A DNA stretch of 64,000 nucleotides from Candidatus Altimarinota bacterium. Lineage in GTDB: Bacteria; Patescibacteriota; Gracilibacteria; CAIRYL01; GCA-016699755. Within the stretch, counting starts at the first letter, position 1. Each line of letters starts with the position of its first letter. Below the pieces are notes generated by a model, which did no database searches, was not told where the DNA came from, and worked only from the letters and a program-made list of their open reading frames with translations. Of this stretch, positions 51,256-64,000 are shown piece by piece. The position numbers and the translations under genes are program-made. The stretch spans positions 768,001-832,000 of the forward strand of contig OY760935.1 in NCBI GenBank assembly GCA_963664295.1, written 5' to 3'.

Positions 51256-54200
51256 TTACCAAATCTCTTTTCTTAGTATTTCAAGAACTTTTTCTCTTTT
51301 TCGAACACCAAGCACAAACAATGCAGAAGCAAATAATACTAGTAAACTTGCTGTGACACCTGTTGTTGGATATTTTGGTGGAACCATAAGAACTTTTAAT
51401 TCATCATCATCTTCTAGTCGAATTGATCCTTCGTTTGCTACCAATTCAGCCATATTTTTAATTGAAGTTCCTGCTTTTACTTCTGGCTTTACTCTTGCTT
51501 TATAGTGATAAACCAAATATTGACCAGGCCTAAGAATAGATTTTCTATAAATTAATCTATTATCTTTTAGCTGACCTTTTGGATGATCAGTCACCTCCAA
51601 TAAATTAGCAGGGATATTGTCTGTAATAACTACATTGTTTAGATCGTAGTCATTGGTATTACGAGCAACTATTGTGTATGTCACTTCTTGTCCTGGCTTA
51701 GCTGCATATACATTTACAACTTTTGAAAAAATTGCTTCTTCATCTGGTTTTTCAGGAATAATTACAGACAAATGAGCTTCATCTGTCTCGCCTATCCCCT
51801 CAGATTTATTAAGCTTATAAAGAACGCTATCCTCTCTTTCAAATTCAAGATCTTCGATAGTCACTCTATTTACGCCACTGCCTTCTCCGATATTATCTAC
51901 ATCTGCTGTAAAGGTGAATATTGTTGTGCCATTGGCATTCACTTTATCAAGTGAGAATGTTTGATCTTTTTCATTCCAAGTAGCACCTTCAACATCACGA
52001 ATATTACTTTGTTTAAAGTCACCTTCAAACACATCACTAATTACAACGTTGTCTGCTGAAAAAGTACCATTATTTTTTACTAATACTCTATATTCAACAT
52101 CTTGTTTTTTATTAGCTTTAATTGCTACTGCCTCAATTGCTGTATCAGCATTTTGCCATTTGCCATTGCTGTCTTTTACTTGTTTTTCAATATTTAATAA
52201 AATAGCACCGTAGATTGTGCGACGGCCACCACCGCCACCTCCGCCACCACCACCTCCACCAGAGGTGCGACCAACAATTACTACAGCTTCATCATCTTGA
52301 TCTATTACAACTCCAGATCTTTGAAGTTCAACTGTATTTTGTACATTTGAGGTTTGATTAACAGGAACAGTAGCATTATCAGCATACATTTGATAAGTCA
52401 AAGTCATGACTGAGCCAGGTTGCATATCTGTGATAACTACTCCACTTGGATCTGTAATCATGCCACCTGCGTTTCCAGTGTTAATTGGATTAAAGCTCAT
52501 TTGATGCAATGTTGGACTTGTAAATGATAAAGTTCCACCGTTATCACCTTCAAAAACATTATCTGCATCATTAGATAAAGTATCTATTATTGATAAATTT
52601 TGATTTGTATTACTTAAATTTTCTACTGTAATTGTGTAGGTTGTATTTTCACCATTTACCAAAGAAGTGTCATCAGCAACTTTAGTAATAGTTGGCTCAA
52701 GAACTGGTATAGAAATATTCACAAGTGCATTGTCTGTTGCTCTTCTTATTGGACTTGTTGATTCAAGTGTTGCTATGTTTTCAAATTGATCATTTGGCAA
52801 AGAAACATTATTTACTACTGCTGAATAAGTGACTTCTTGTACTCCATCAGCAGGACTAAGAGGTCCTCCTAAATTACAATCAATTTCATCAAAAATACCG
52901 TCTGCATCTATATCAACAGGAGAACATCTGTTGTCACTAATACTGCCACTGTTAAGCGTAATTGCAACTTCATCAAAATCATCTTCAAGAGTAATTCCAT
53001 CAACAGAAAGACCAGACACGCTTTCAACATGATAAGCAAGACGGTAATAAACCGTATCACCTACTTGTGCTGTTGCAGTAGGATTAAAAGGTCCTGCCTG
53101 ATTAAGTGAAACTCCTTTTTCAAGACGTAAAAATGGTTCTTGAGGAGGATTCATTGTGATAGTTGTATTACAAGTACTACTAGCACCATTAATATTAAAA
53201 ACTTCCATTGTATATGTTGCATCTGCTGTCAAAGTAGGTGTGTCACCACTTCCGTCAGCAGTATATGGATCATGATTTGAATCTAAATCATCTGGTGTCA
53301 TTGTTGCAGTATTAACAGGGCCTTCAAGATCCCAGGTTAATGTTGCAAATTCTCCTGGATCAATTGGTCCACTATTTGTCAAAGTACAAGTTGGTACATC
53401 AACAGGAACAACATTAAGAGTATAAGGACATTGTGTTGTTAATGTCTCGTCTGTATTTGTTGCAGGGTCAACAACATGAGCACCTGTCACATCTAAAGCA
53501 TAATCAAAAACTTCCGCCTGGTTTTCATCTGCTAATCTTGGTCCAGACAGAAAATTTCCAGCACCACTGTTTGTAGCTGGATCAATTGTTAAGGTACCAA
53601 TTCCCTGATTTACTTCTGCGCTAACTGCATAATTAGCTGTCCAATCAAAAGTAGCACTATCACCATCTGTGATAGTATGACTATTTCCTTGTACGCCAGG
53701 GATTTGACAGCTACAAGTTGGACGAAGAAAAACAGAATCATCACAAGTAATAGTTGTTCCATCAAGACCAACTACTTCTAAAGAAGCTGTTGTTTCCATT
53801 TGATCAAGAGCCTGTGGCACTGTGTCATTATTATTTGAGCCAGTTAAAAAATAGTCTTGACCACCATAAGTCAAGGTTGCTGATTGCGCATTTGTAAACG
53901 ACCAATTAAAACTAGTGTCATAAATACCTGCATCCATAATTAAATTAGCATACTCAAGACTACAAGCAGGAGGGCCAATAGGCACAACACTGATATTTGC
54001 AGTACATTCTGTTTGCATAACACTCGCTGGATCATTTGGATCAGTCTGTGCACCATACACAGTCAAAACATACGGATTATCACCCAAAGGAGGAGTTAAT
54101 CCGCTTGCTGTACCGCTATTATTATTTTCACTGTTTGGTTGCAAATTGCCAAGATCAGGATTAGTCATAACCATAGAAGCATGTGTAAATGCCCAATCCA

Positions 54201-55785
54201 AACTTGCAGACTGTCCTTCGGTTATTGTTTGTGTTGCCGGAGTCAGCGAACAAGTTGGACGAATAAAAACAGTATCACTACAGGTAATAGTAGTTCCATC
54301 AAGACCAACTACTTCTAAATTAGAAATTGTTTCTGTCAAAGTTGGAATAATTCCTGATGATGAACCACTGCCATTTCCACTTGCATCAGGGGTCAAAGCT
54401 GTGCCATCAAGGTCAGCTGATACAGCATTTGTAAATGAATAATCAAGAGTTGTTTGTTCTCCTTCATTAAGAAGGTCTGGTGTGTATGTCAGGCTACAGG
54501 TAGGAGCACCTGCTGGAACAATACCTACTGTAGCAGTACTACTATCTGATCCAGCAGGGGTTGTCATGTCAATATCTGCCGTATTAGTAAAACTACCACT
54601 AGTGCCTGTAATTTCTGCACTATAAAGAATTGTTTCAGTATTATTTGCTGGCAAATTAGCAATATTACATACAATCTGGGTACCATCAGGTGTACAACTA
54701 GCATCTCCCTCGTCGATTATAGTAATACTATTTGGGTCTAAATTACTCTCATCAAAATTATCAGTAATAGTAATTCCTTGCCCCGCAGTGTTAGTATTGC
54801 TATTTACCTGATATGTAAGTTGATAATAAACCGTGCTACCTGTTGGTGCTGATGTGGCAGTAAGAAAAGGGCCTCCTTCGCTAGTGGAAACGCCTTTTTC
54901 AATATCTATAGTTGCATCAACAACCTCAACATCAGCAGTACAAGTGCCAGAACCATTGTCATTAGAAATATTTAATGTAAAAGTTTGTGAACCTACATTG
55001 TTTAATGGATGACTGTAACCACTTCCATCAACAGTATAATCATAATTTTGTGATAAATTAGGACTCATAGCTCCGTTATTTACTGTGCCTGTTATGTCCC
55101 AATTTAAAGTTGCCTGTTCACCAACTTGTAAAATATTGTTATCAACAGTTAATGCACAAGATGGCTCTGCACAGGCCTCCCATTTTCTTTGTATCGGCAC
55201 TGATCCACTAGCGTCATGTTGAGTTGAATGAGGATCATTAGGGTCTTCTAAATAAAAAGCTTTAAAATTAACTCTCAAAGTATAATCTCCAAGATCAACA
55301 CCTGGTTTTGGCTGAGTGCGAATCATAACATAGGCACACTGAAATTTTTCATCATCACCTAATGCGGCTTGATTATAACAATTATCTTGAGTAATAGCTT
55401 CTGATCCATCACCAGGCACCCTCCATGTAATAATATTATTATTAAAACCTACAAAATATTTATCAGAAATACCATCTCCATTTGGATCAATATCCTGACC
55501 ATTTGCATACACATGATCAATGTCAACAAAATCAAGTTGATCCGCAACATTGCTTAGGTCTAATGTTGCTTCGTAATAATAAATTGCCTGATTTGTATTT
55601 GCATCAGGGCCATATGTCCAAAGAGTTGTCACTGGACCACATTCGCCAGTTTTGCCATTATCTGGTTGAATGGTTAGATCTGCTTTAAACAAAGAAGAAT
55701 CTTGATAAAAATACAAAAATACTGCTCCCAGCACTATTATTAGTGTGGATATTAAAACAGCCTGAATTTTTTTATTTTTAAACAT
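51256..55785 (-). CDS. Large surface protein with DUF11 / Ig-like repeats and a C-terminal PxTG-TM-basic tail
   Basis: IEKGVS...GSTVYYQL, ITKVAD...TTYTITVEN, PGQEVTYTIVARN repeats; Cys-paired Ig-like units; poly-Gly linker; YPTTG then TM helix and RKREK. Confidence 0.85.
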   Translation of the reverse strand: MFKNKKIQAVLISTLIIVLGAVFLYFYQDSSLFKADLTIQPDNGKTGECGPVTTLWTYGPDANTNQAIYYYEATLDLSNVADQLDFVDIDHVYANGQDIDPNGDGISDKYFVGFNNNIITWRVPGDGSEAITQDNCYNQAALGDDEKFQCAYVMIRTQPKPGVDLGDYTLRVNFKAFYLEDPNDPHSTQHDASGSVPIQRKWEACAEPSCALTVDNNILQVGEQATLNWDITGTVNNGAMSPNLSQNYDYTVDGSGYSHPLNNVGSQTFTLNISNDNGSGTCTADVEVVDATIDIEKGVSTSEGGPFLTATSAPTGSTVYYQLTYQVNSNTNTAGQGITITDNFDESNLDPNSITIIDEGDASCTPDGTQIVCNIANLPANNTETILYSAEITGTSGSFTNTADIDMTTPAGSDSSTATVGIVPAGAPTCSLTYTPDLLNEGEQTTLDYSFTNAVSADLDGTALTPDASGNGSGSSSGIIPTLTETISNLEVVGLDGTTITCSDTVFIRPTCSLTPATQTITEGQSASLDWAFTHASMVMTNPDLGNLQPNSENNNSGTASGLTPPLGDNPYVLTVYGAQTDPNDPASVMQTECTANISVVPIGPPACSLEYANLIMDAGIYDTSFNWSFTNAQSATLTYGGQDYFLTGSNNNDTVPQALDQMETTASLEVVGLDGTTITCDDSVFLRPTCSCQIPGVQGNSHTITDGDSATFDWTANYAVSAEVNQGIGTLTIDPATNSGAGNFLSGPRLADENQAEVFDYALDVTGAHVVDPATNTDETLTTQCPYTLNVVPVDVPTCTLTNSGPIDPGEFATLTWDLEGPVNTATMTPDDLDSNHDPYTADGSGDTPTLTADATYTMEVFNINGASSTCNTTITMNPPQEPFLRLEKGVSLNQAGPFNPTATAQVGDTVYYRLAYHVESVSGLSVDGITLEDDFDEVAITLNSGSISDNRCSPVDIDADGIFDEIDCNLGGPLSPADGVQEVTYSAVVNNVSLPNDQFENIATLESTSPIRRATDNALVNISIPVLEPTITKVADDTSLVNGENTTYTITVENLSNTNQNLSIIDTLSNDADNVFEGDNGGTLSFTSPTLHQMSFNPINTGNAGGMITDPSGVVITDMQPGSVMTLTYQMYADNATVPVNQTSNVQNTVELQRSGVVIDQDDEAVVIVGRTSGGGGGGGGGGGGRRTIYGAILLNIEKQVKDSNGKWQNADTAIEAVAIKANKKQDVEYRVLVKNNGTFSADNVVISDVFEGDFKQSNIRDVEGATWNEKDQTFSLDKVNANGTTIFTFTADVDNIGEGSGVNRVTIEDLEFEREDSVLYKLNKSEGIGETDEAHLSVIIPEKPDEEAIFSKVVNVYAAKPGQEVTYTIVARNTNDYDLNNVVITDNIPANLLEVTDHPKGQLKDNRLIYRKSILRPGQYLVYHYKARVKPEVKAGTSIKNMAELVANEGSIRLEDDDELKVLMVPPKYPTTGVTASLLVLFASALFVLGVRKREKVLEILRKEIW

Positions 55786-55838: not shown

Positions 55839-58800
55839 TCATGAAATATTCACAGTTGGTCCTGAAGGATTTTCTTCAGGATTTGCATTAATATCACCAT
55901 CTACACGACCAGCACTTCCGTCGCCGCCTGGCCTTATTTCTTGACTTGCATCTCCTGCTCCCCCTGCTTGTTTTCTTATGTTAATCTCCACATCTTCTTC
56001 TCTTCTTCCTCCTGCTAATGAAATTGTCCATATATCTTTGTATGGTTTTAGTGGATCAGGCATTACTGATGTTCTTATAATTTTAGCTTTTCTAAGGAAT
56101 GTCTTCATTTCTTTGATGTCAGTATCAACACCAAAACTAAGGCCATGGGCAATAACTGGATTAAAACATTCAAATTCTTGCCCTCGAGTTCCATAAGAAA
56201 ACCCAACAACAGCATTAAGATCAAAACTTAAATTTACTATTTTCTTTTCACCAGTTTGCTTATTTTCAATTTTAATTAACTCATATGTATCAATTTTTTG
56301 GTTCTTTTTTAATTTTTTAAAAATCTCGTTAACAATTTCTTTTATGTTTGCGGGATTTTTTAAAAAATTAGCATCATTACCAAGTGCATCTGCCCATTGA
56401 TCGAGCACTTTTTTTATTGCTCTTTTAATTCTTGCTTTTATGTCTTCTTCGTTTTGTTCAACATACAATTTTAATGCTCCCCTGCTATCTGCTAATCTTT
56501 TTGTCACAGTTGGCACCTCGTCTTTAAAAGCAGTAAATTGACGCAAGGTCACACCTCCTCCACCAATTCCCTTTCTTGCGAGCATGATTGCTGTGGAACC
56601 ATGTATTAGTGAATCATAATCAAAAAGTGATCCTGGTATTTTTGCCAATTCAGCTTTAATTGCAGGAGCTTCGCCATTAGTTCCATGTTGATAAGCTGAT
56701 CTCTGAAAATCTTTTACTGTGTCAAGTAAAGCTTTCATTTCATCTACCAATTTATGAGTCAAAGTATATGAATACCTAAATTGCTCCTGTTTTGGCAAAA
56801 GTCCTGCAACATCATTCACCATTCCACTTGCCCGAAGCATATCTAAGCTATTTCCATCAAAGCCAGCGTCTGTGGAATTGCGCTCATAAACTTCATTCAT
56901 AACCCTGCGCACAAAAAGATATTCTTTGCCTCCCAGGCTTGTTTTCTCTTCTTCAGTAAGAAGATTTAATATTTGACCTTTTATTGCTGAACGATCTACG
57001 CCTAGATCAACCCCATAGTCAATAATTAAGTTCAACAAAGCTATCTTTTGATTATCTTCTTTGATCGCAGTTGCCAATTCTTCTGCCTTTTGAATTTCAT
57101 CTTTTGTTAATTCGTAATCATAATTTTTTATATCCGCTGGCTCTGCTTCTAGCGACTCTGATAATAAATGCTTATCAAAACTTGCTCCATGAAAACCTGC
57201 CGGAGCTACTGCTGTTGCTTTCCCTTCCGCATTTAAACTTGCTCCATTATTATCAACACCATAATTATTCACTCTCACTAATTTAGTGTCTTGATGTCGA
57301 ACATAAAAACAATAAGCGGATTTATCAACAGTTTTTTGCACCTCAGCAAAATTAAAATCTGTAGTATTATCAGTAATAATCACGGTTCTTTCCGATCTTC
57401 CTGTGTGTGCAGAGAGATTTCCCACTCGCACAGAAGGTATATTTGCTTTAGCTTCATCAAGATTAGATAGTGGCCCTAAATCAATAAACAAACCATTTTG
57501 AGGCATAATAGAGTGCGCCCTATTTGCAAAATCTGCAAATTTACCAGCAAACATAATCTTAGTATCTTTTGCTGGATTGGTTTTTGGCATAACTTGCAAA
57601 TAATAACGACCGTTATCCGCATTTTTGTTTATATTTGTTTCCCAACCCAATGCATTAAATGGCTCTTTATATAAATTTTCTAATTTTTTTATAGTCAAGC
57701 TCTCTTTGTTTTCTATGCTTACTGATCCTTCTTTTTCTTCATCAATAGCAAACTCAAGCTCGCCATCACTTGTTGGCACTGTGTAATAGCTTTCTTGACC
57801 TGTTATTGTTTTATTTCTTAAAACAACTTTTTCGTCAGGAGTAATTTGATCCATAAGAGCCAATTGCTCCATGAGCTGTCTTTCTTTGCCAAGCAATTGC
57901 TCGCTATATCCTTTTGCATGATATTTTGTTCCTGTTGCAAAAGAAAGGCTCAAAAATGGCAAAATCATGCCATTAAGCCAAGCAGCTACACCAAGACTAG
58001 TAATAGGCGTACGAGGTATTATTCCTTTTGGTGAACCATCAATAATAGCCAACTTAATTCTTTGTCTTAACTCTGCAGGAGGTGGAGCATTTTCTCCTAA
58101 TTCTATATTTAGAGTTTTGCCATCAAAAGTAGCGTTTACTCCTTCTGTAGAAATTCTTTCTGCAATTTGGTTCCACATTGACCGAACCGGACTGCGCTCA
58201 ACACCAGCAAATCCCATAAAGCCCAAAGTGCTATAACCTCCACCAAGAAACAAACTCCATTCTTTACTATCTCCAAAATTATAATGTGCTGTCAATGTTG
58301 TTGCGCCAAATGTGCTTGTTGCGCCAGCTGCTGAAAAATCAAGTCTAAATTTTTCTGTATTAAAAATAGTCCAATTAACACCACCAGAAACAAATGGAGT
58401 GTATCCAACCTTTCCTGTGTCCATGTTTTCCTGCCTGCTTCCACCAACACCAAGAAACAAAACAAAACCACGACCAAGATCAATGGCCTTGTTAACACTA
58501 AAAGCAAAAAGAAGTTCTTCTTCTGTGCCAACTTCGTTTCCATGCTGATTAGATGTTTGTATGTCTGTCACTTGACCATAAAGCAAAGCATGATAAAGAA
58601 CTTGCGATTGTGCTTCCTGACTAAAACTTACTCCTTCTGGCATTTCTTTTTTAATTTTATCAACAAAATAATTTGCAATAGCAATTTTTTGTAACACTTC
58701 TGCTTTTTCTTCTTCTCCTAATCCTAAACTATTAATATAAGCCTCTAATACTTCTTTTCCTTTTTGTGCTTTTTCATGCAAATCTGTAGGGTTAATTTTT

Positions 58801-60386
58801 GAAAACTTGAGCGCACTTCGAACTTCTTGGTTTTCTGCGAGTGGTCTTTGACTTGCTAAGCTAAAATCTTCTTTTCCTTTATTTTTAGGATTAAAATTTC
58901 TGCCCTCATACATTGCTTTTAAGCCAAAAATTACATTTTTTATTTTATATGTACTATTTTGAACACTTATCTCTTCATCAAGATCACCTTTCCCAAATTT
59001 AAAATTAGTTTTATATTTTTTTAATTTTGCAAGTTCTTCTTCATAATAATCTTCTTTTTCGCGAATTAACCAAATTTCTTTATCTAACTCATCAATTTGT
59101 TTTTCAATTTGTTTTCTTGCTTGTTTGTCTTTTTGCCCTTTTAGCGCAAGCTTTTTGTCTCCTATTTCTTGTTTTAAAGCTTTTATCAAGGTGTCTGCTG
59201 TGCCATCTTTTTTTGAATATTCTTCCATAAACTCTGCATATGCCTTACCTTTTTCACTAGCCAAATGCAATAATGCTCCAAATTTTTCCTCACTAAATTG
59301 ACCATTTTCATCTACACAAGCTGTGCGAATTTGATCATATAATTGAATTTCATCAACACCAATATCACCCATAATATTCACCCTTATTCTTTTTCCTCTA
59401 TCAACATCATCAACATTGGTTGATTTTTTAATGCCAGCTTCTATGTGTTTATCGTCATCAAAATTACAAAGTTGCCTCAAAGCAAGTTCATGGGAAGCTA
59501 AGGTTTCACCATCTTCTCCTGCAACTGCCAATCTGTCATTGCCTTTTGGCGCTTTTGCCATTTCATTAAAAGTAAGACCAGAAATTGCTTCGGCCAATCT
59601 TTTAAGATCTTCAATTAACTCATTTTTATAAATCCCGATTTCTGTCTTTCTTAAAGATGTTGATTCTTTTAAATAAATTTCATTCATCTTTTTTGCAAAC
59701 TCGTTTTCCGGCAAATCAACAATTGCCTCAATCAAATCATCATAGCTCACTTCTTTGTGCACTCCCCAAAAACCAGCTAATAAATTACGAAGAAACTTGT
59801 TGGTATTTGGACTAAGAACACCAAGTTTTTTCAAAGCATTCTCAACATGCTTAATACCATTAAGTCGTTCAAAATGGGAATTATCAAGCTGTTCACCACG
59901 CACACCTTTAAATCCATCAATAATTTCCTGATCTAGTTTAATTTTTTCATTTCCTTTGTCTAATCCTGCTTCAATTTGTTTTTCTGCAAGTTTTAATAAA
60001 TTTTTTTGCGTATCATCAACAACTTTTTGCATGTCTTTAAGTGCTTTTTCTAGTTTTTTTGTTTGTCTTTTGTCTAAACCTTGCCAAAATTGTGTTTCTT
60101 TTAGTATTAATTCATTTTTTGTAGCTTCTTCTGCGTTTTGTATTTTTTGTCTTAATTGCAAAATATTAATTTGCTTATCGTCTAGTGTAATTTTATGTTT
60201 ATCAATAATCTCCATTACTTTTGTGTGGTCATCTATAATCTCTGCACTTTTCGGATCATCATAAAGGCTTCTATTGACTGCACCAGGCATTGCAGTTTCT
60301 GGCACTGGCACTTTATTAAAACATCTTCTCTTCTCCAGCCAAAAAGAATTATAAAATCCTCTGTTTTTTTGCAATCTGTTTTTCAT
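55839..60386 (-). CDS. Very large hypothetical protein (coiled-coil N-terminal half, central Gly/aromatic beta-rich segment)
   Basis: ~1515-aa ORF; ATG at 60386 (track start TTG 60407); no family recognised. Confidence 0.8.
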   Translation of the reverse strand: MKNRLQKNRGFYNSFWLEKRRCFNKVPVPETAMPGAVNRSLYDDPKSAEIIDDHTKVMEIIDKHKITLDDKQINILQLRQKIQNAEEATKNELILKETQFWQGLDKRQTKKLEKALKDMQKVVDDTQKNLLKLAEKQIEAGLDKGNEKIKLDQEIIDGFKGVRGEQLDNSHFERLNGIKHVENALKKLGVLSPNTNKFLRNLLAGFWGVHKEVSYDDLIEAIVDLPENEFAKKMNEIYLKESTSLRKTEIGIYKNELIEDLKRLAEAISGLTFNEMAKAPKGNDRLAVAGEDGETLASHELALRQLCNFDDDKHIEAGIKKSTNVDDVDRGKRIRVNIMGDIGVDEIQLYDQIRTACVDENGQFSEEKFGALLHLASEKGKAYAEFMEEYSKKDGTADTLIKALKQEIGDKKLALKGQKDKQARKQIEKQIDELDKEIWLIREKEDYYEEELAKLKKYKTNFKFGKGDLDEEISVQNSTYKIKNVIFGLKAMYEGRNFNPKNKGKEDFSLASQRPLAENQEVRSALKFSKINPTDLHEKAQKGKEVLEAYINSLGLGEEEKAEVLQKIAIANYFVDKIKKEMPEGVSFSQEAQSQVLYHALLYGQVTDIQTSNQHGNEVGTEEELLFAFSVNKAIDLGRGFVLFLGVGGSRQENMDTGKVGYTPFVSGGVNWTIFNTEKFRLDFSAAGATSTFGATTLTAHYNFGDSKEWSLFLGGGYSTLGFMGFAGVERSPVRSMWNQIAERISTEGVNATFDGKTLNIELGENAPPPAELRQRIKLAIIDGSPKGIIPRTPITSLGVAAWLNGMILPFLSLSFATGTKYHAKGYSEQLLGKERQLMEQLALMDQITPDEKVVLRNKTITGQESYYTVPTSDGELEFAIDEEKEGSVSIENKESLTIKKLENLYKEPFNALGWETNINKNADNGRYYLQVMPKTNPAKDTKIMFAGKFADFANRAHSIMPQNGLFIDLGPLSNLDEAKANIPSVRVGNLSAHTGRSERTVIITDNTTDFNFAEVQKTVDKSAYCFYVRHQDTKLVRVNNYGVDNNGASLNAEGKATAVAPAGFHGASFDKHLLSESLEAEPADIKNYDYELTKDEIQKAEELATAIKEDNQKIALLNLIIDYGVDLGVDRSAIKGQILNLLTEEEKTSLGGKEYLFVRRVMNEVYERNSTDAGFDGNSLDMLRASGMVNDVAGLLPKQEQFRYSYTLTHKLVDEMKALLDTVKDFQRSAYQHGTNGEAPAIKAELAKIPGSLFDYDSLIHGSTAIMLARKGIGGGGVTLRQFTAFKDEVPTVTKRLADSRGALKLYVEQNEEDIKARIKRAIKKVLDQWADALGNDANFLKNPANIKEIVNEIFKKLKKNQKIDTYELIKIENKQTGEKKIVNLSFDLNAVVGFSYGTRGQEFECFNPVIAHGLSFGVDTDIKEMKTFLRKAKIIRTSVMPDPLKPYKDIWTISLAGGRREEDVEINIRKQAGGAGDASQEIRPGGDGSAGRVDGDINANPEENPSGPTVNIS

Positions 60387-60529
60387 GTTTGTTTTTAATT
60401 TTTTCAAACTCCAACACTTAGAGTTTTAATCATAATATTATCTCATAAAAAAAACATTTTTGCAAATAAAACAATAGACAAAAACTTATTCTATGCCCTT
60501 TGTCAAACTGCCAAAAAACCGCACCAAAA

Positions 60530-61773: not shown

Positions 61774-61883
61774 TGTTTTATCATTATTCAATCTATTATC
61801 TCATATTTTTATCAAAAAATCAATGTTTAAAGTTGAGCAAAGCCCTTTTTTGTGGCAGAATGTGCCAAGATTTTTAAATTATA

Positions 61884-64000
61884 ATGGCAGAAAAATACAA
61901 TCATTTAGAAATTGAGAAAAAATGGCAAAAATTTTGGGAAGAAAATAAAACTTTTAAAGCAAGTGAAGATACACAAAAAGAAAAATTTTATGCTTTGGAT
62001 ATGTTTCCATATCCATCTGGAGCTGGTCTTCATGTTGGTCACCCAGAAGGCTACACAGCTAGTGATATAATCTGTCGCTATAAACGCATGAAAGATTTTG
62101 AGGTTTTACACCCAATGGGCTGGGACGCTTTTGGTTTGCCTGCGGAAAACCACGCAATAAAAACAGGTATTCACCCAAGAATATCAACAGAAAACAATAT
62201 CAATGTTTTTCGCAAACAAATTAGATCAATTGGTTTTTCTTATGATTGGGATCGTGAAATCGACTCCACTGACCCTGCTTATTTCAAGTGGACTCAGTGG
62301 ATCTTCCTGCAATTTTTTAATTCTTATTTTGATAAAGAAGCAAACAAAGCAAAGCCAATCACAGAATTAGAAAAAAAACTGGAACAAGAAGGAAAATTCG
62401 ATGGACTTAGCCAAAAAGAGCGCAATGAAATTTTAAGCAAATACAGACTTGCCTACGAAGAAAAAGCGCCAATCAATTTTTGCCCAAGCTGTAAAACAGG
62501 CCTAGCAAACGAAGAAGTTGTTGATGGAAAATGTGAACGTTGCCACACACCAGTAGAAAGAAAAAATATCCGCCAATGGATACTTAGAATTACAAAATAT
62601 GCAGAAAGATTATTAAATGATCTTAATCCTGCCACTGCTTTTGTTTTGCATGGCTATGGTGCTGACTCTGGTTCTAATTTTTTTCCATGGACAAAAAAAG
62701 AACTGGAAAAAAGAGGTTTCGAAACATACGCACCAGATTTTCCAAACACAGAAAATCCAAATTACGAAGAATGGAAAAAATATTTTGAAAAAAACTACGG
62801 AGATAAAATTGATGAAAAAACAATTTTAATCGGACACTCACTTGGTGGTAGCTTCATTCTCCGTTGGCTTTCCGAAACAGGCAGACAAATCGACCAGGCA
62901 ATATTAATAGCTCCTGCAAAAAACGACTGTGGGATAAGTCAAATTGGCAATTTTTTTGATACTGAACTGGATTTTGAAAAAATCAAAAATATAACAAATA
63001 AAATAATTTTAATTGGCAGTGATAATGATCAATTTATCCCCAAAACTGACTTTGATAGCATTGCAGAAAGCACCAATGCAGAATTTAATCTTCTTCCAGG
63101 TCGTGAACATTTAATGGATTTAGATCTGCCAGAATTATTACCTTATTTAGACAAAGCCTCAGAAAATATTCTTGATTGGCCAGACAAAATCAGCATTATG
63201 CAAAAAAACTGGATTGGAAAATCACAAGGAGCAGAAGTTGATTTTGAAATAAATAATGAAAAAGTGACTGTGTTCACAACTCGTCCGGATACTCTTTTTG
63301 GTGCTACTTATTTTGTGCTTTCTCCTGAACACCCATTAGTTGAAAAAATCACCACTCCTGAGCAAAAAGAAGAAGTGGAAAAATATATCAAAGAAGCTCA
63401 ACACAAATCCGACATGGAACGAACAGAGCTAAATAAAGATAAAACCGGTGTCTTTACCGGCGCTTATGCTGTCAATCCTGTTAATAATGAAAAAATACCT
63501 GTTTGGATTGCAGATTATGTACTCATGAGCTATGGAACAGGAGCAATTATGGCAGTACCTGCCCATGATGAACGGGACTTTGAATTTGCACAAAAATTTG
63601 ATTTACCAGTAATTGAAGTTGTTAAAGCGCCTGCAGGAAATGAGGAAGAATGTTTTGCAGGAAATGGCACAGCAATAAACTCTGGTTTTCTTAACGAACT
63701 CAGCACAGAAGAAGCAAAAGAAAAAATAATCAACTGGTTAGAAGAAAAAAAACTAGGCAAAAAAACAATAAATTACAAAATCCGTGACTGGATTTTTTCT
63801 CGTCAAAGATACTGGGGAGAGCCAATCCCAGTAATTCATTGTGAAAAATGTGGCACAGTTGCCATGCCAGAAAAAGAATTACCACTCGAACTACCAGAGG
63901 TAGAACAATATGAGCCTTCCGGTACTGGCGAAAGCCCACTTGTAAACATAACAAACTGGGTAAACACTACTTGCCCGGAATGCGGAGGGAATGCAAAAAG
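61884..64000 (+). CDS. leuS: Leucine--tRNA ligase, partial, with an in-frame inserted alpha/beta hydrolase domain
   Basis: Absent from the ORF track (no stop in window). Manual translation: MAEKYNH...[71 protein letters not shown]. Confidence 0.97.

Follow-up and report, generated by a model that had tools for sequence, protein, structure and literature searches.

A YdeN/RBBP9-type serine hydrolase nested in the leucyl-tRNA synthetase of a Candidatus Altimarinota bacterium and its recurrent pairing with LeuRS

The analyzed window, a stretch of 64,000 nucleotides from the single-contig genome (G000; 1.2 Mb, 33.5% GC) of a Candidatus Altimarinota bacterium, ends within leuS, the gene encoding leucyl-tRNA synthetase (LeuRS). 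The sequence-only reading had remarked that this gene was missed by the open reading frame track; the reason is that its frame is left open at the window end ('3open'). The leuS product scored 1060 bits against the equivalog model TIGR00396 (leuS_bact; cut-off 548). Upstream of leuS, two large open reading frames were located on the minus strand (51256-55785 and 55839-60407); the first encodes a surface-type protein of 1509 aa that contains DUF11 repeats, the second a 1522-aa product without a Pfam match.

Within leuS, 182 codons separate LLNDL (ending at 62624) from LDWPD (starting at 63171), and pairwise alignment of the product with a compact relative gave a net insert of 180 aa (Table 1). 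The insert lies outside the CP1 editing domain, in a short loop about 14 residues ahead of the WIG linker. This loop, designated site A, corresponds to loop 208-211 of T. thermophilus LeuRS, ahead of the linker into CP1. The span from IT.YA to WIGKS comprised 32-34 residues in insert-free relatives and 211-218 in carriers, and reached 360 in one carrier with a further nested stretch. The TTRPDT and PAHDERD motifs of CP1 were intact, as had been read from the letters, and so were HVGH and KMSKS. The separate 40-aa helical insert was also found in some hydrolase-free relatives (compared set: L006, L009 and L029).

Table 1. Features of leuS and of the synthetase-borne phosphatase of the same genome (window positions unless a genome position is given)
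Feature	Position	Strand	Basis
leuS, leucyl-tRNA synthetase, 1028 aa	61884..64000, then 970 bases past the window to G000:C1:832970	+	TIGR00396; model
HIGH-type motif HVGH (aa 50-53), synthetic site	62031..62042	+	
Separate 40-aa helical insert (aa 148-187) ahead of first zinc knuckle	62325..62444	+	alignment; model helices
Nested YdeN/RBBP9-type alpha/beta serine hydrolase (aa 248-429), site A loop	62625..63170	+	PF06821; phmmer; model
His-Gly after strand 1 (aa 256-257), predicted oxyanion-hole loop	62649..62654	+	invariant in alignments A1, A2, A6
Ser319, predicted nucleophile in GHSLGG	62838..62840	+	aligns with RBBP9 Ser75
Asp382, second D of SDND, predicted triad acid	63027..63029	+	alignment
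His409, predicted triad base	63108..63110	+	alignment
CP1 editing domain (aa 441-620)	63204..63743	+	PF13603, E 2.6e-70
TTRPDT motif of CP1, intact	63276-63293	+	
Asp565 of PAHDERD, CP1	63576-63578	+	
Histidine phosphatase in IleRS of G000	G000:C1 about 64510-65110 (L198:2511-3113)	minus	PF00300

The insert was assigned to the Ser_hydrolase family PF06821 and is YdeN/RBBP9-like as judged from its modelled fold and aligned triad. PF06821 matched aa 254-410 with 55.9 bits, above the curated cut-off of 22 (E 6.7e-15 for the insert alone), and this was the sole PF06821 match of the genome. A phmmer search with the insert matched 1uxo, 9fcr and 2qs9, and the top Foldseek matches of the insert model (pLDDT 96.5) were 1uxo, 2qs9, 7oex and 9fcr (TM 0.89-0.93). 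The model superposed on YdeN (1uxo) with a TM of 0.93 and an rmsd of 1.4 and on RBBP9 with a TM of 0.89-0.90 (7oex 0.90), displaying the small lidless alpha/beta hydrolase fold of the family. In the full-length model (pLDDT 89.5, pTM 0.84) the junctions were confident (pLDDT about 87-90) and the LeuRS part resembled solved LeuRS structures (target-normalised TM 0.82-0.85; 5omw 0.85).

The three predicted triad residues were invariant in all 13 aligned relatives, and the His-Gly pair after strand 1 would form the oxyanion hole, as in the family. The profile, the fold model and the triad therefore agree with the original proposal of a complete RBBP9/YdeN hydrolase in frame with a full triad, and the position given for its serine was correct. 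Across 81 synthetase-borne copies, which were found by HMM and hence are biased toward intact ones, the serine was kept in 81, the histidine in 80 and Asp or Glu in 73 (by column). In four close site-A pairs, dN/dS was 0.19-0.33 for the insert and 0.08-0.15 for the core; the insert is under purifying selection, looser than that on the LeuRS core. The retained triad and these ratios suggest that the hydrolase is likely to be catalytically active.

The host reading frame and motifs are left intact by the insert, as might be expected of an assembly chimera or of a self-removing element (intein, intron or transposon) that leaves a normal LeuRS. Both origins are very improbable. In the three runs X1-X3, all of one sample that may be the source, single contigs covered 61800-64000 with zero differences. 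In run X4, from another study, contigs 62388-62715 and 62845-63464 each bridged one junction, so that the junction-spanning check proposed from the sequence was passed in a second strain. P0001, whose insert is 65% identical, and G004 hold the insert at the same site. Within the order, 8 of 20 genomes had site A filled, as did four genomes from another family; altogether, at least 15 genomes or proteins besides this one have the insert there. The spanning contigs and these relatives rule out a chimera. Inteins start with Cys or Ser and end with His-Asn, whereas the insert begins NPATAF and ends SENI. No splice-junction residues, stop codons, terminal repeats or target-site duplication were detected at the insert, and the repeats near it were chance repeats in AT-rich DNA. 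Its GC content (0.34) matched that of the host gene (0.35-0.37), a further point against a self-removing element. The fusion of hydrolase and LeuRS was confirmed as genuine, in frame and recurrent.

Among the variants listed for the X4 strain, which came from low-depth single contigs and are given no weight, 7 silent and 5 changing ones fell in the insert and 18 and 8, respectively, elsewhere. Pattern scans of genome contigs and of metagenome contigs with the insert returned 190 and 247 stretches, none of which was confirmed as a relative.

A sample of 149 genomes of the phylum contained 145 with a LeuRS match and 13 (about 9%) with the hydrolase inside LeuRS. Across the sampled relatives, six LeuRS positions hold the hydrolase: before the first strand of LeuRS (site N), ahead of the CP1 linker as in this leuS (site A), at the start of CP1 (site B), inside CP1 (site D), in the second zinc knuckle (site C) and after KMSKS (site F). 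Tandem copies were present in P0002-P0004 and P0031. The proposed survey of site A in other LeuRSs found it filled by the hydrolase in several relatives and a plain loop in others. The pairing of hydrolase and synthetase recurs at these six loops across ultra-small bacteria and archaea, and related proteins were found in Ca. Magasanikbacteria and Woesearchaeota. These named relatives, with the reading of TGA as sense in some genomes of the class, point to a Patescibacteria (CPR) organism, probably of the Gracilibacteria.

Other synthetase hosts of the hydrolase were ValRS, IleRS and a Glu/Gln-type synthetase. The hosts outside the synthetases were UvrB, UvrC, SecA and aminopeptidase N, and peptidase S51 was also a partner. 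Serine hydrolases were held by a UvrB frame that also has a histidine phosphatase (L191:1561-4935), a UvrC frame (L192:1359-3899) and a C-terminal SecA frame (L193:1274-2932); under code 11, the N-terminal part of this secA is read from another frame.

The choice of host is not random. All 13 long PF06821 frames of the phylum sample (among 85 matches in the 149 genomes) were LeuRSs, while none of the 23 long frames of a control domain, the histidine phosphatase, was a LeuRS among the 150 of 178 matches listed from the same genomes; both counts include kin, which are not independent, so that a Fisher test on them overstates the contrast. The 21 classified phosphatase frames comprised 12 IleRSs, 5 ValRSs and 4 AlaRSs. 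In this genome itself, the 1221-aa IleRS, which adds the twelfth IleRS to the 11 among 20 frames fetched, holds a histidine phosphatase (E 2.3e-41) in its zinc knuckle. In a class sample with 97 matches, 15 of 19 identified fusions were LeuRSs, and further fusions could be hidden in the genomes that read TGA as sense, which occur in the class of this organism and in which frame lengths are shortened. A separate homologue search gave 13 LeuRSs, two IleRSs and one ValRS among 17 long matches. In a library clustered at 50% identity, which collapses LeuRS fusions, 26 proteins among the best 150 matches exceeded 290 aa; 7 were synthetases and 19 had other partners. The hydrolase strongly prefers LeuRS as its host, and this preference differs from that of the control domain.

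LeuRSs of the phylum carry other inserts as well. The commonest was NUDIX, which occupied one CP1 loop in at least 30 of 146 LeuRS matches (L098-L134; longer frames only). Ap4A is a by-product of synthetases, and NUDIX in CP1 could clear it. In the complete genome G000, no NUDIX (PF00293) match was found, and one free YbaK-type tRNA_edit gene is located at C1:553458-553838. Sites B, C and D also accept Y1_Tnp, DUF559, HAD, Ham1 and nucleotidyltransferase domains. Y1_Tnp, an IS200-like transposase domain, was inserted in frame at the CP1 start in L011, L126, L194 and L195; the DUF559 nuclease domain was found likewise in L016 and L020, and DUF559 inserts were flanked by peptide repeats of the PPTPL..G / SPL.KG.LG type. 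As extreme cases, the LeuRS frame at L134:2677-8061 is 1795 aa long and combines HAD, Ham1 and NUDIX with a nucleotidyltransferase and an unknown domain, and the 1837-aa IleRS frame at L186:490-6000 (code 25) contains a serine hydrolase and two histidine phosphatases besides NUDIX. A variant CP1 with S(A/T)HFEA for TTRPDT and a shortened GTG..C(S/A)HDERD loop was present in scattered lineages (L009, L179, L180, L184, L197 and P0067).

Phylogenetic analysis indicated a patchy history. On the backbone trees, presence at site A required five changes, 2-3 of them forced by starred branches. In G019, from a genus of carriers, site A was a plain loop from which the hydrolase was cleanly absent; this genome is 76% complete and its leuS loop was assembled. 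Since only 13 of 149 genomes of the phylum carry the hydrolase in LeuRS and G019 is without it, the domain is dispensable. A single clade of LeuRS-borne copies apart from free ones was rejected (p-AU 2e-13; 40 vs 27 rows), and site-A copies as one clade were neither rejected nor established (p-AU 0.17); these AU tests used a subset of 78 of 306 rows. The trees were quick and FastTree trees, whose deep branches are weak. The rejection implies that gain, or exchange with free genes, took place more than once. The UvrC and SecA copies fell inside a clade of 33 rows, mostly LeuRS-borne and without free members (SH-aLRT 89), and the UvrB copy in another LeuRS-rich clade. The leuS genes of the close relatives G013 and G017 were 83% identical in the core and only 34% identical in CP1, which suggests that leuS is a mosaic in which modules may have been swapped.

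Free relatives were occasionally found near synthetase genes. Among the 12 best class matches to the subfamily, nine were fused at site A, two were free near leuS and one was a free paralogue elsewhere. The two free genes near leuS belong to G229 and G462, members of one genus, in which the hydrolase gene precedes an insert-free leuS by about 0.9 kb and a single gene on the opposite strand lies between the two. A general rule that free copies lie beside leuS did not hold for the family, since only one of 72 non-fused PF06821 matches in the phylum sample adjoined leuS. Class Ia synthetases were encoded within the 0.8-1.5 kb flanks of 3 of 77 loci with free or otherwise fused hydrolases. At L169:855-1442, a free YdeN-type gene and the stop of a MetRS-like gene (metG) overlap by four bases, suggesting coupled translation.

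The sequence-only reading had raised extra editing or deacylation as a role. In this role the hydrolase would act in cis on tRNA-Leu mischarged with Met, Phe, Tyr, norvaline or D-amino acids, or on wrong adenylates. RBBP9 forms an acyl-enzyme with single hydrophobic amino acids (Leu/Ile, Met, Phe, Tyr and Trp were trapped), requires a free alpha-amine and, according to its authors, may cleave amide, ester or thioester bonds (PMC8866121). Sites A, B and D flank CP1 or lie inside it, the graft is almost linker-free with a confident model, and the complete genome has no DTD (PF02580) match. However, six scattered sites could hardly all face the CCA end, and across the family the six LeuRS sites and the non-synthetase hosts showed no single placement with respect to the 3' end of the tRNA. 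The domain is acidic, with a net charge of -14 and a median of -10 for site-A copies (medians of -3 for synthetase-borne and -5 for free copies, p 0.002), so a positive surface for tRNA binding was not supported. If it acted at the CCA end, an aminoacyl esterase lacking selectivity would destroy Leu-tRNA as well. CP1 is intact in this LeuRS, and its motifs were altered no more often in carriers (7 of 61) than in non-carriers (5 of 62; p 0.56; two further carriers are fragments and were left out), so that compensation for a broken CP1 was rejected. Replacement of DTD likewise gave no signal, as DTD was detected in 1 of 13 carriers and 14 of 136 others. With six loops in use, hydrolases of the same clades in UvrB, UvrC and SecA, an intact CP1 and a charge of -14, a positioned second editing site is unlikely, and editing in cis received a low probability.

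The explanation that we favour, at a probability of about 0.45 and ahead of an unrelated function or editing in cis, is that of an active helper that is tethered to LeuRS but works independently of its position, hydrolysing small diffusible aminoacyl esters, thioesters or short peptides nearby. The six LeuRS sites and the tandem copies argue for a tethered rather than a positioned helper, and the chemistry of RBBP9 together with the host bias toward LeuRS points, by analogy, to an aminoacyl-type substrate. The benefit would come from co-expression with LeuRS or proximity to it. LeuRS and IleRS, among other synthetases, produce homocysteine thiolactone, and clearing such by-products may be the task of the helper. 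Alternatively, it might free hydrophobic amino acids from imported peptides. In the literature, homocysteine thiolactone is described as a by-product of synthetase editing, with MetRS named, and BPHL, an unrelated alpha/beta hydrolase of alpha-amino-acid esters, is described as hydrolysing it (PMC4198189). Lineages could have passed the domain on by exchanging segments of leuS, and only rarely would it have moved to another loop or gene.

The retained triad under selection, the LeuRS bias absent from the control phosphatase, the nearest free relatives about 0.9 kb from leuS, the one overlapping the end of metG, and fusion to aminopeptidase N and peptidase S51 are all consistent with the helper. 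Other evidence weighs against it. The amine anchors of RBBP9 are not kept in this copy (Leu320, Ala345 and about Gln353), and the pocket loop varies widely among synthetase-borne clades without convergence. Copies from LeuRS-borne clades also sit inside UvrB, UvrC and SecA, proteins without aminoacyl chemistry. Most family members are free and distant from leuS, in 19 of the 26 longer proteins of the representative search the partner was not a synthetase, and the bacterial homologue ML-005 is reported to be a short-chain esterase (PMC6119806).

Several of these observations would also fit if the domain were an ordinary active esterase whose job is unrelated to aminoacylation and which merely rides inside leuS, a plausible competitor though the less probable one. 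It would persist because leuS is essential, always expressed, tolerant of insertions in its loops and often exchanged, and the LeuRS bias would reflect local hopping and a founder effect of early insertions. The acceptance of Y1_Tnp, DUF559, HAD, Ham1, NUDIX and nucleotidyltransferase at the same loops, the nesting of the UvrB, UvrC and SecA copies in LeuRS-borne clades, the patchy presence with a clean absence in G019, the apparently mosaic leuS and the missing amine anchors are all in agreement with such a rider. The mobility of the domain fits an accidental passenger. It fits less well that several hydrolase clades are found in LeuRS while the control phosphatase of the same genomes never is and sits in other synthetases, that both domains favour synthetases over other large essential genes, and that free relatives lie beside leuS and metG. 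The suggestion of a passenger domain at a permissive site thus held for the site, whose loops also accept NUDIX, DUF559, Y1_Tnp, HAD and nucleotidyltransferase, and failed for the passenger, which is neither inert nor randomly placed, given its selected triad and LeuRS bias.

As a broader generalization, which we regard as possible rather than probable, synthetases of ultra-small bacteria and archaea may be equipped with nested house-cleaning enzymes according to a pairing rule: the serine hydrolase with LeuRS, the histidine phosphatase with IleRS, ValRS and AlaRS, and NUDIX with CP1 of LeuRS. The hydrolase would then be an undescribed aminoacyl hydrolase in the direct service of LeuRS: it would supply leucine released from imported peptides, degrade by-products of editing or use serine-hydrolase chemistry to proofread mischarged tRNA. 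Synthetases of these reduced genomes are carriers of small hydrolases, and the host depends on the domain. An aminoacyl-directed activity would represent new chemistry for translation quality control or amino-acid supply; otherwise, the fusion would remain a clear example of enzymes carried within essential genes. In either case it offers an assayable lead to the function of bacterial YdeN-family enzymes.

The fusion is apparently undescribed. No description was found in the literature searched on LeuRS or other synthetases of CPR, Patescibacteria and DPANN, and metagenome annotation tables could list it; the automatic JGI label of P0014 reads 'leucyl-tRNA synthetase/predicted alpha/beta hydrolase family esterase'. 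LeuRS is among the best-studied enzymes, and no LeuRS with a serine hydrolase has been solved or, as far as we found, published. The LeuRSs of T. thermophilus (1h3n, 2bte) and E. coli (4aq7, 5omw) share all catalytic and editing motifs with this one; at site A the solved enzymes have a loop of about four residues (208-211 in T. thermophilus), whereas 180 extra residues are present here.

Extra enzymes carried by or beside synthetases are known from the INS/YbaK, AlaX and DTD factors, which are accessory or editing systems, and from an IleRS with a GNAT domain (NCBIfam NF040702). Known editing domains occupy one fixed site and bind the tRNA end; the nested domain differs in being a serine hydrolase, in using six sites and other hosts, and in being optional. 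Its closest likeness is to YdeN of B. subtilis (1uxo), the PF06821 family and ML-005, a YdeN homologue identified by metaproteomics, with which it shares the lidless fold, the G-H-S-L-G elbow, the Ser-Asp-His triad and the HG loop. YdeN and ML-005 are free-standing, whereas the hydrolase described here is nested in LeuRS without a linker. Human RBBP9 (2qs9, 7oex, 9fcr), reported as a serine aminopeptidase that acts on hydrophobic and aromatic residues (PMC8866121), has the same family and fold, and its triad aligned with that of the insert. Its cage residues Phe140 and Leu141 correspond to Phe384 and Ile385, and Leu103 is replaced by Cys349. The alpha-amine anchors of an RBBP9-type aminopeptidase, Ser76, Tyr99 and Glu108, were not retained in this copy, being replaced by Leu320, Ala345 and about Gln353, the last pairing being uncertain where the alignment crosses a 2-residue gap; most close relatives carry Glu at the position of Gln353.
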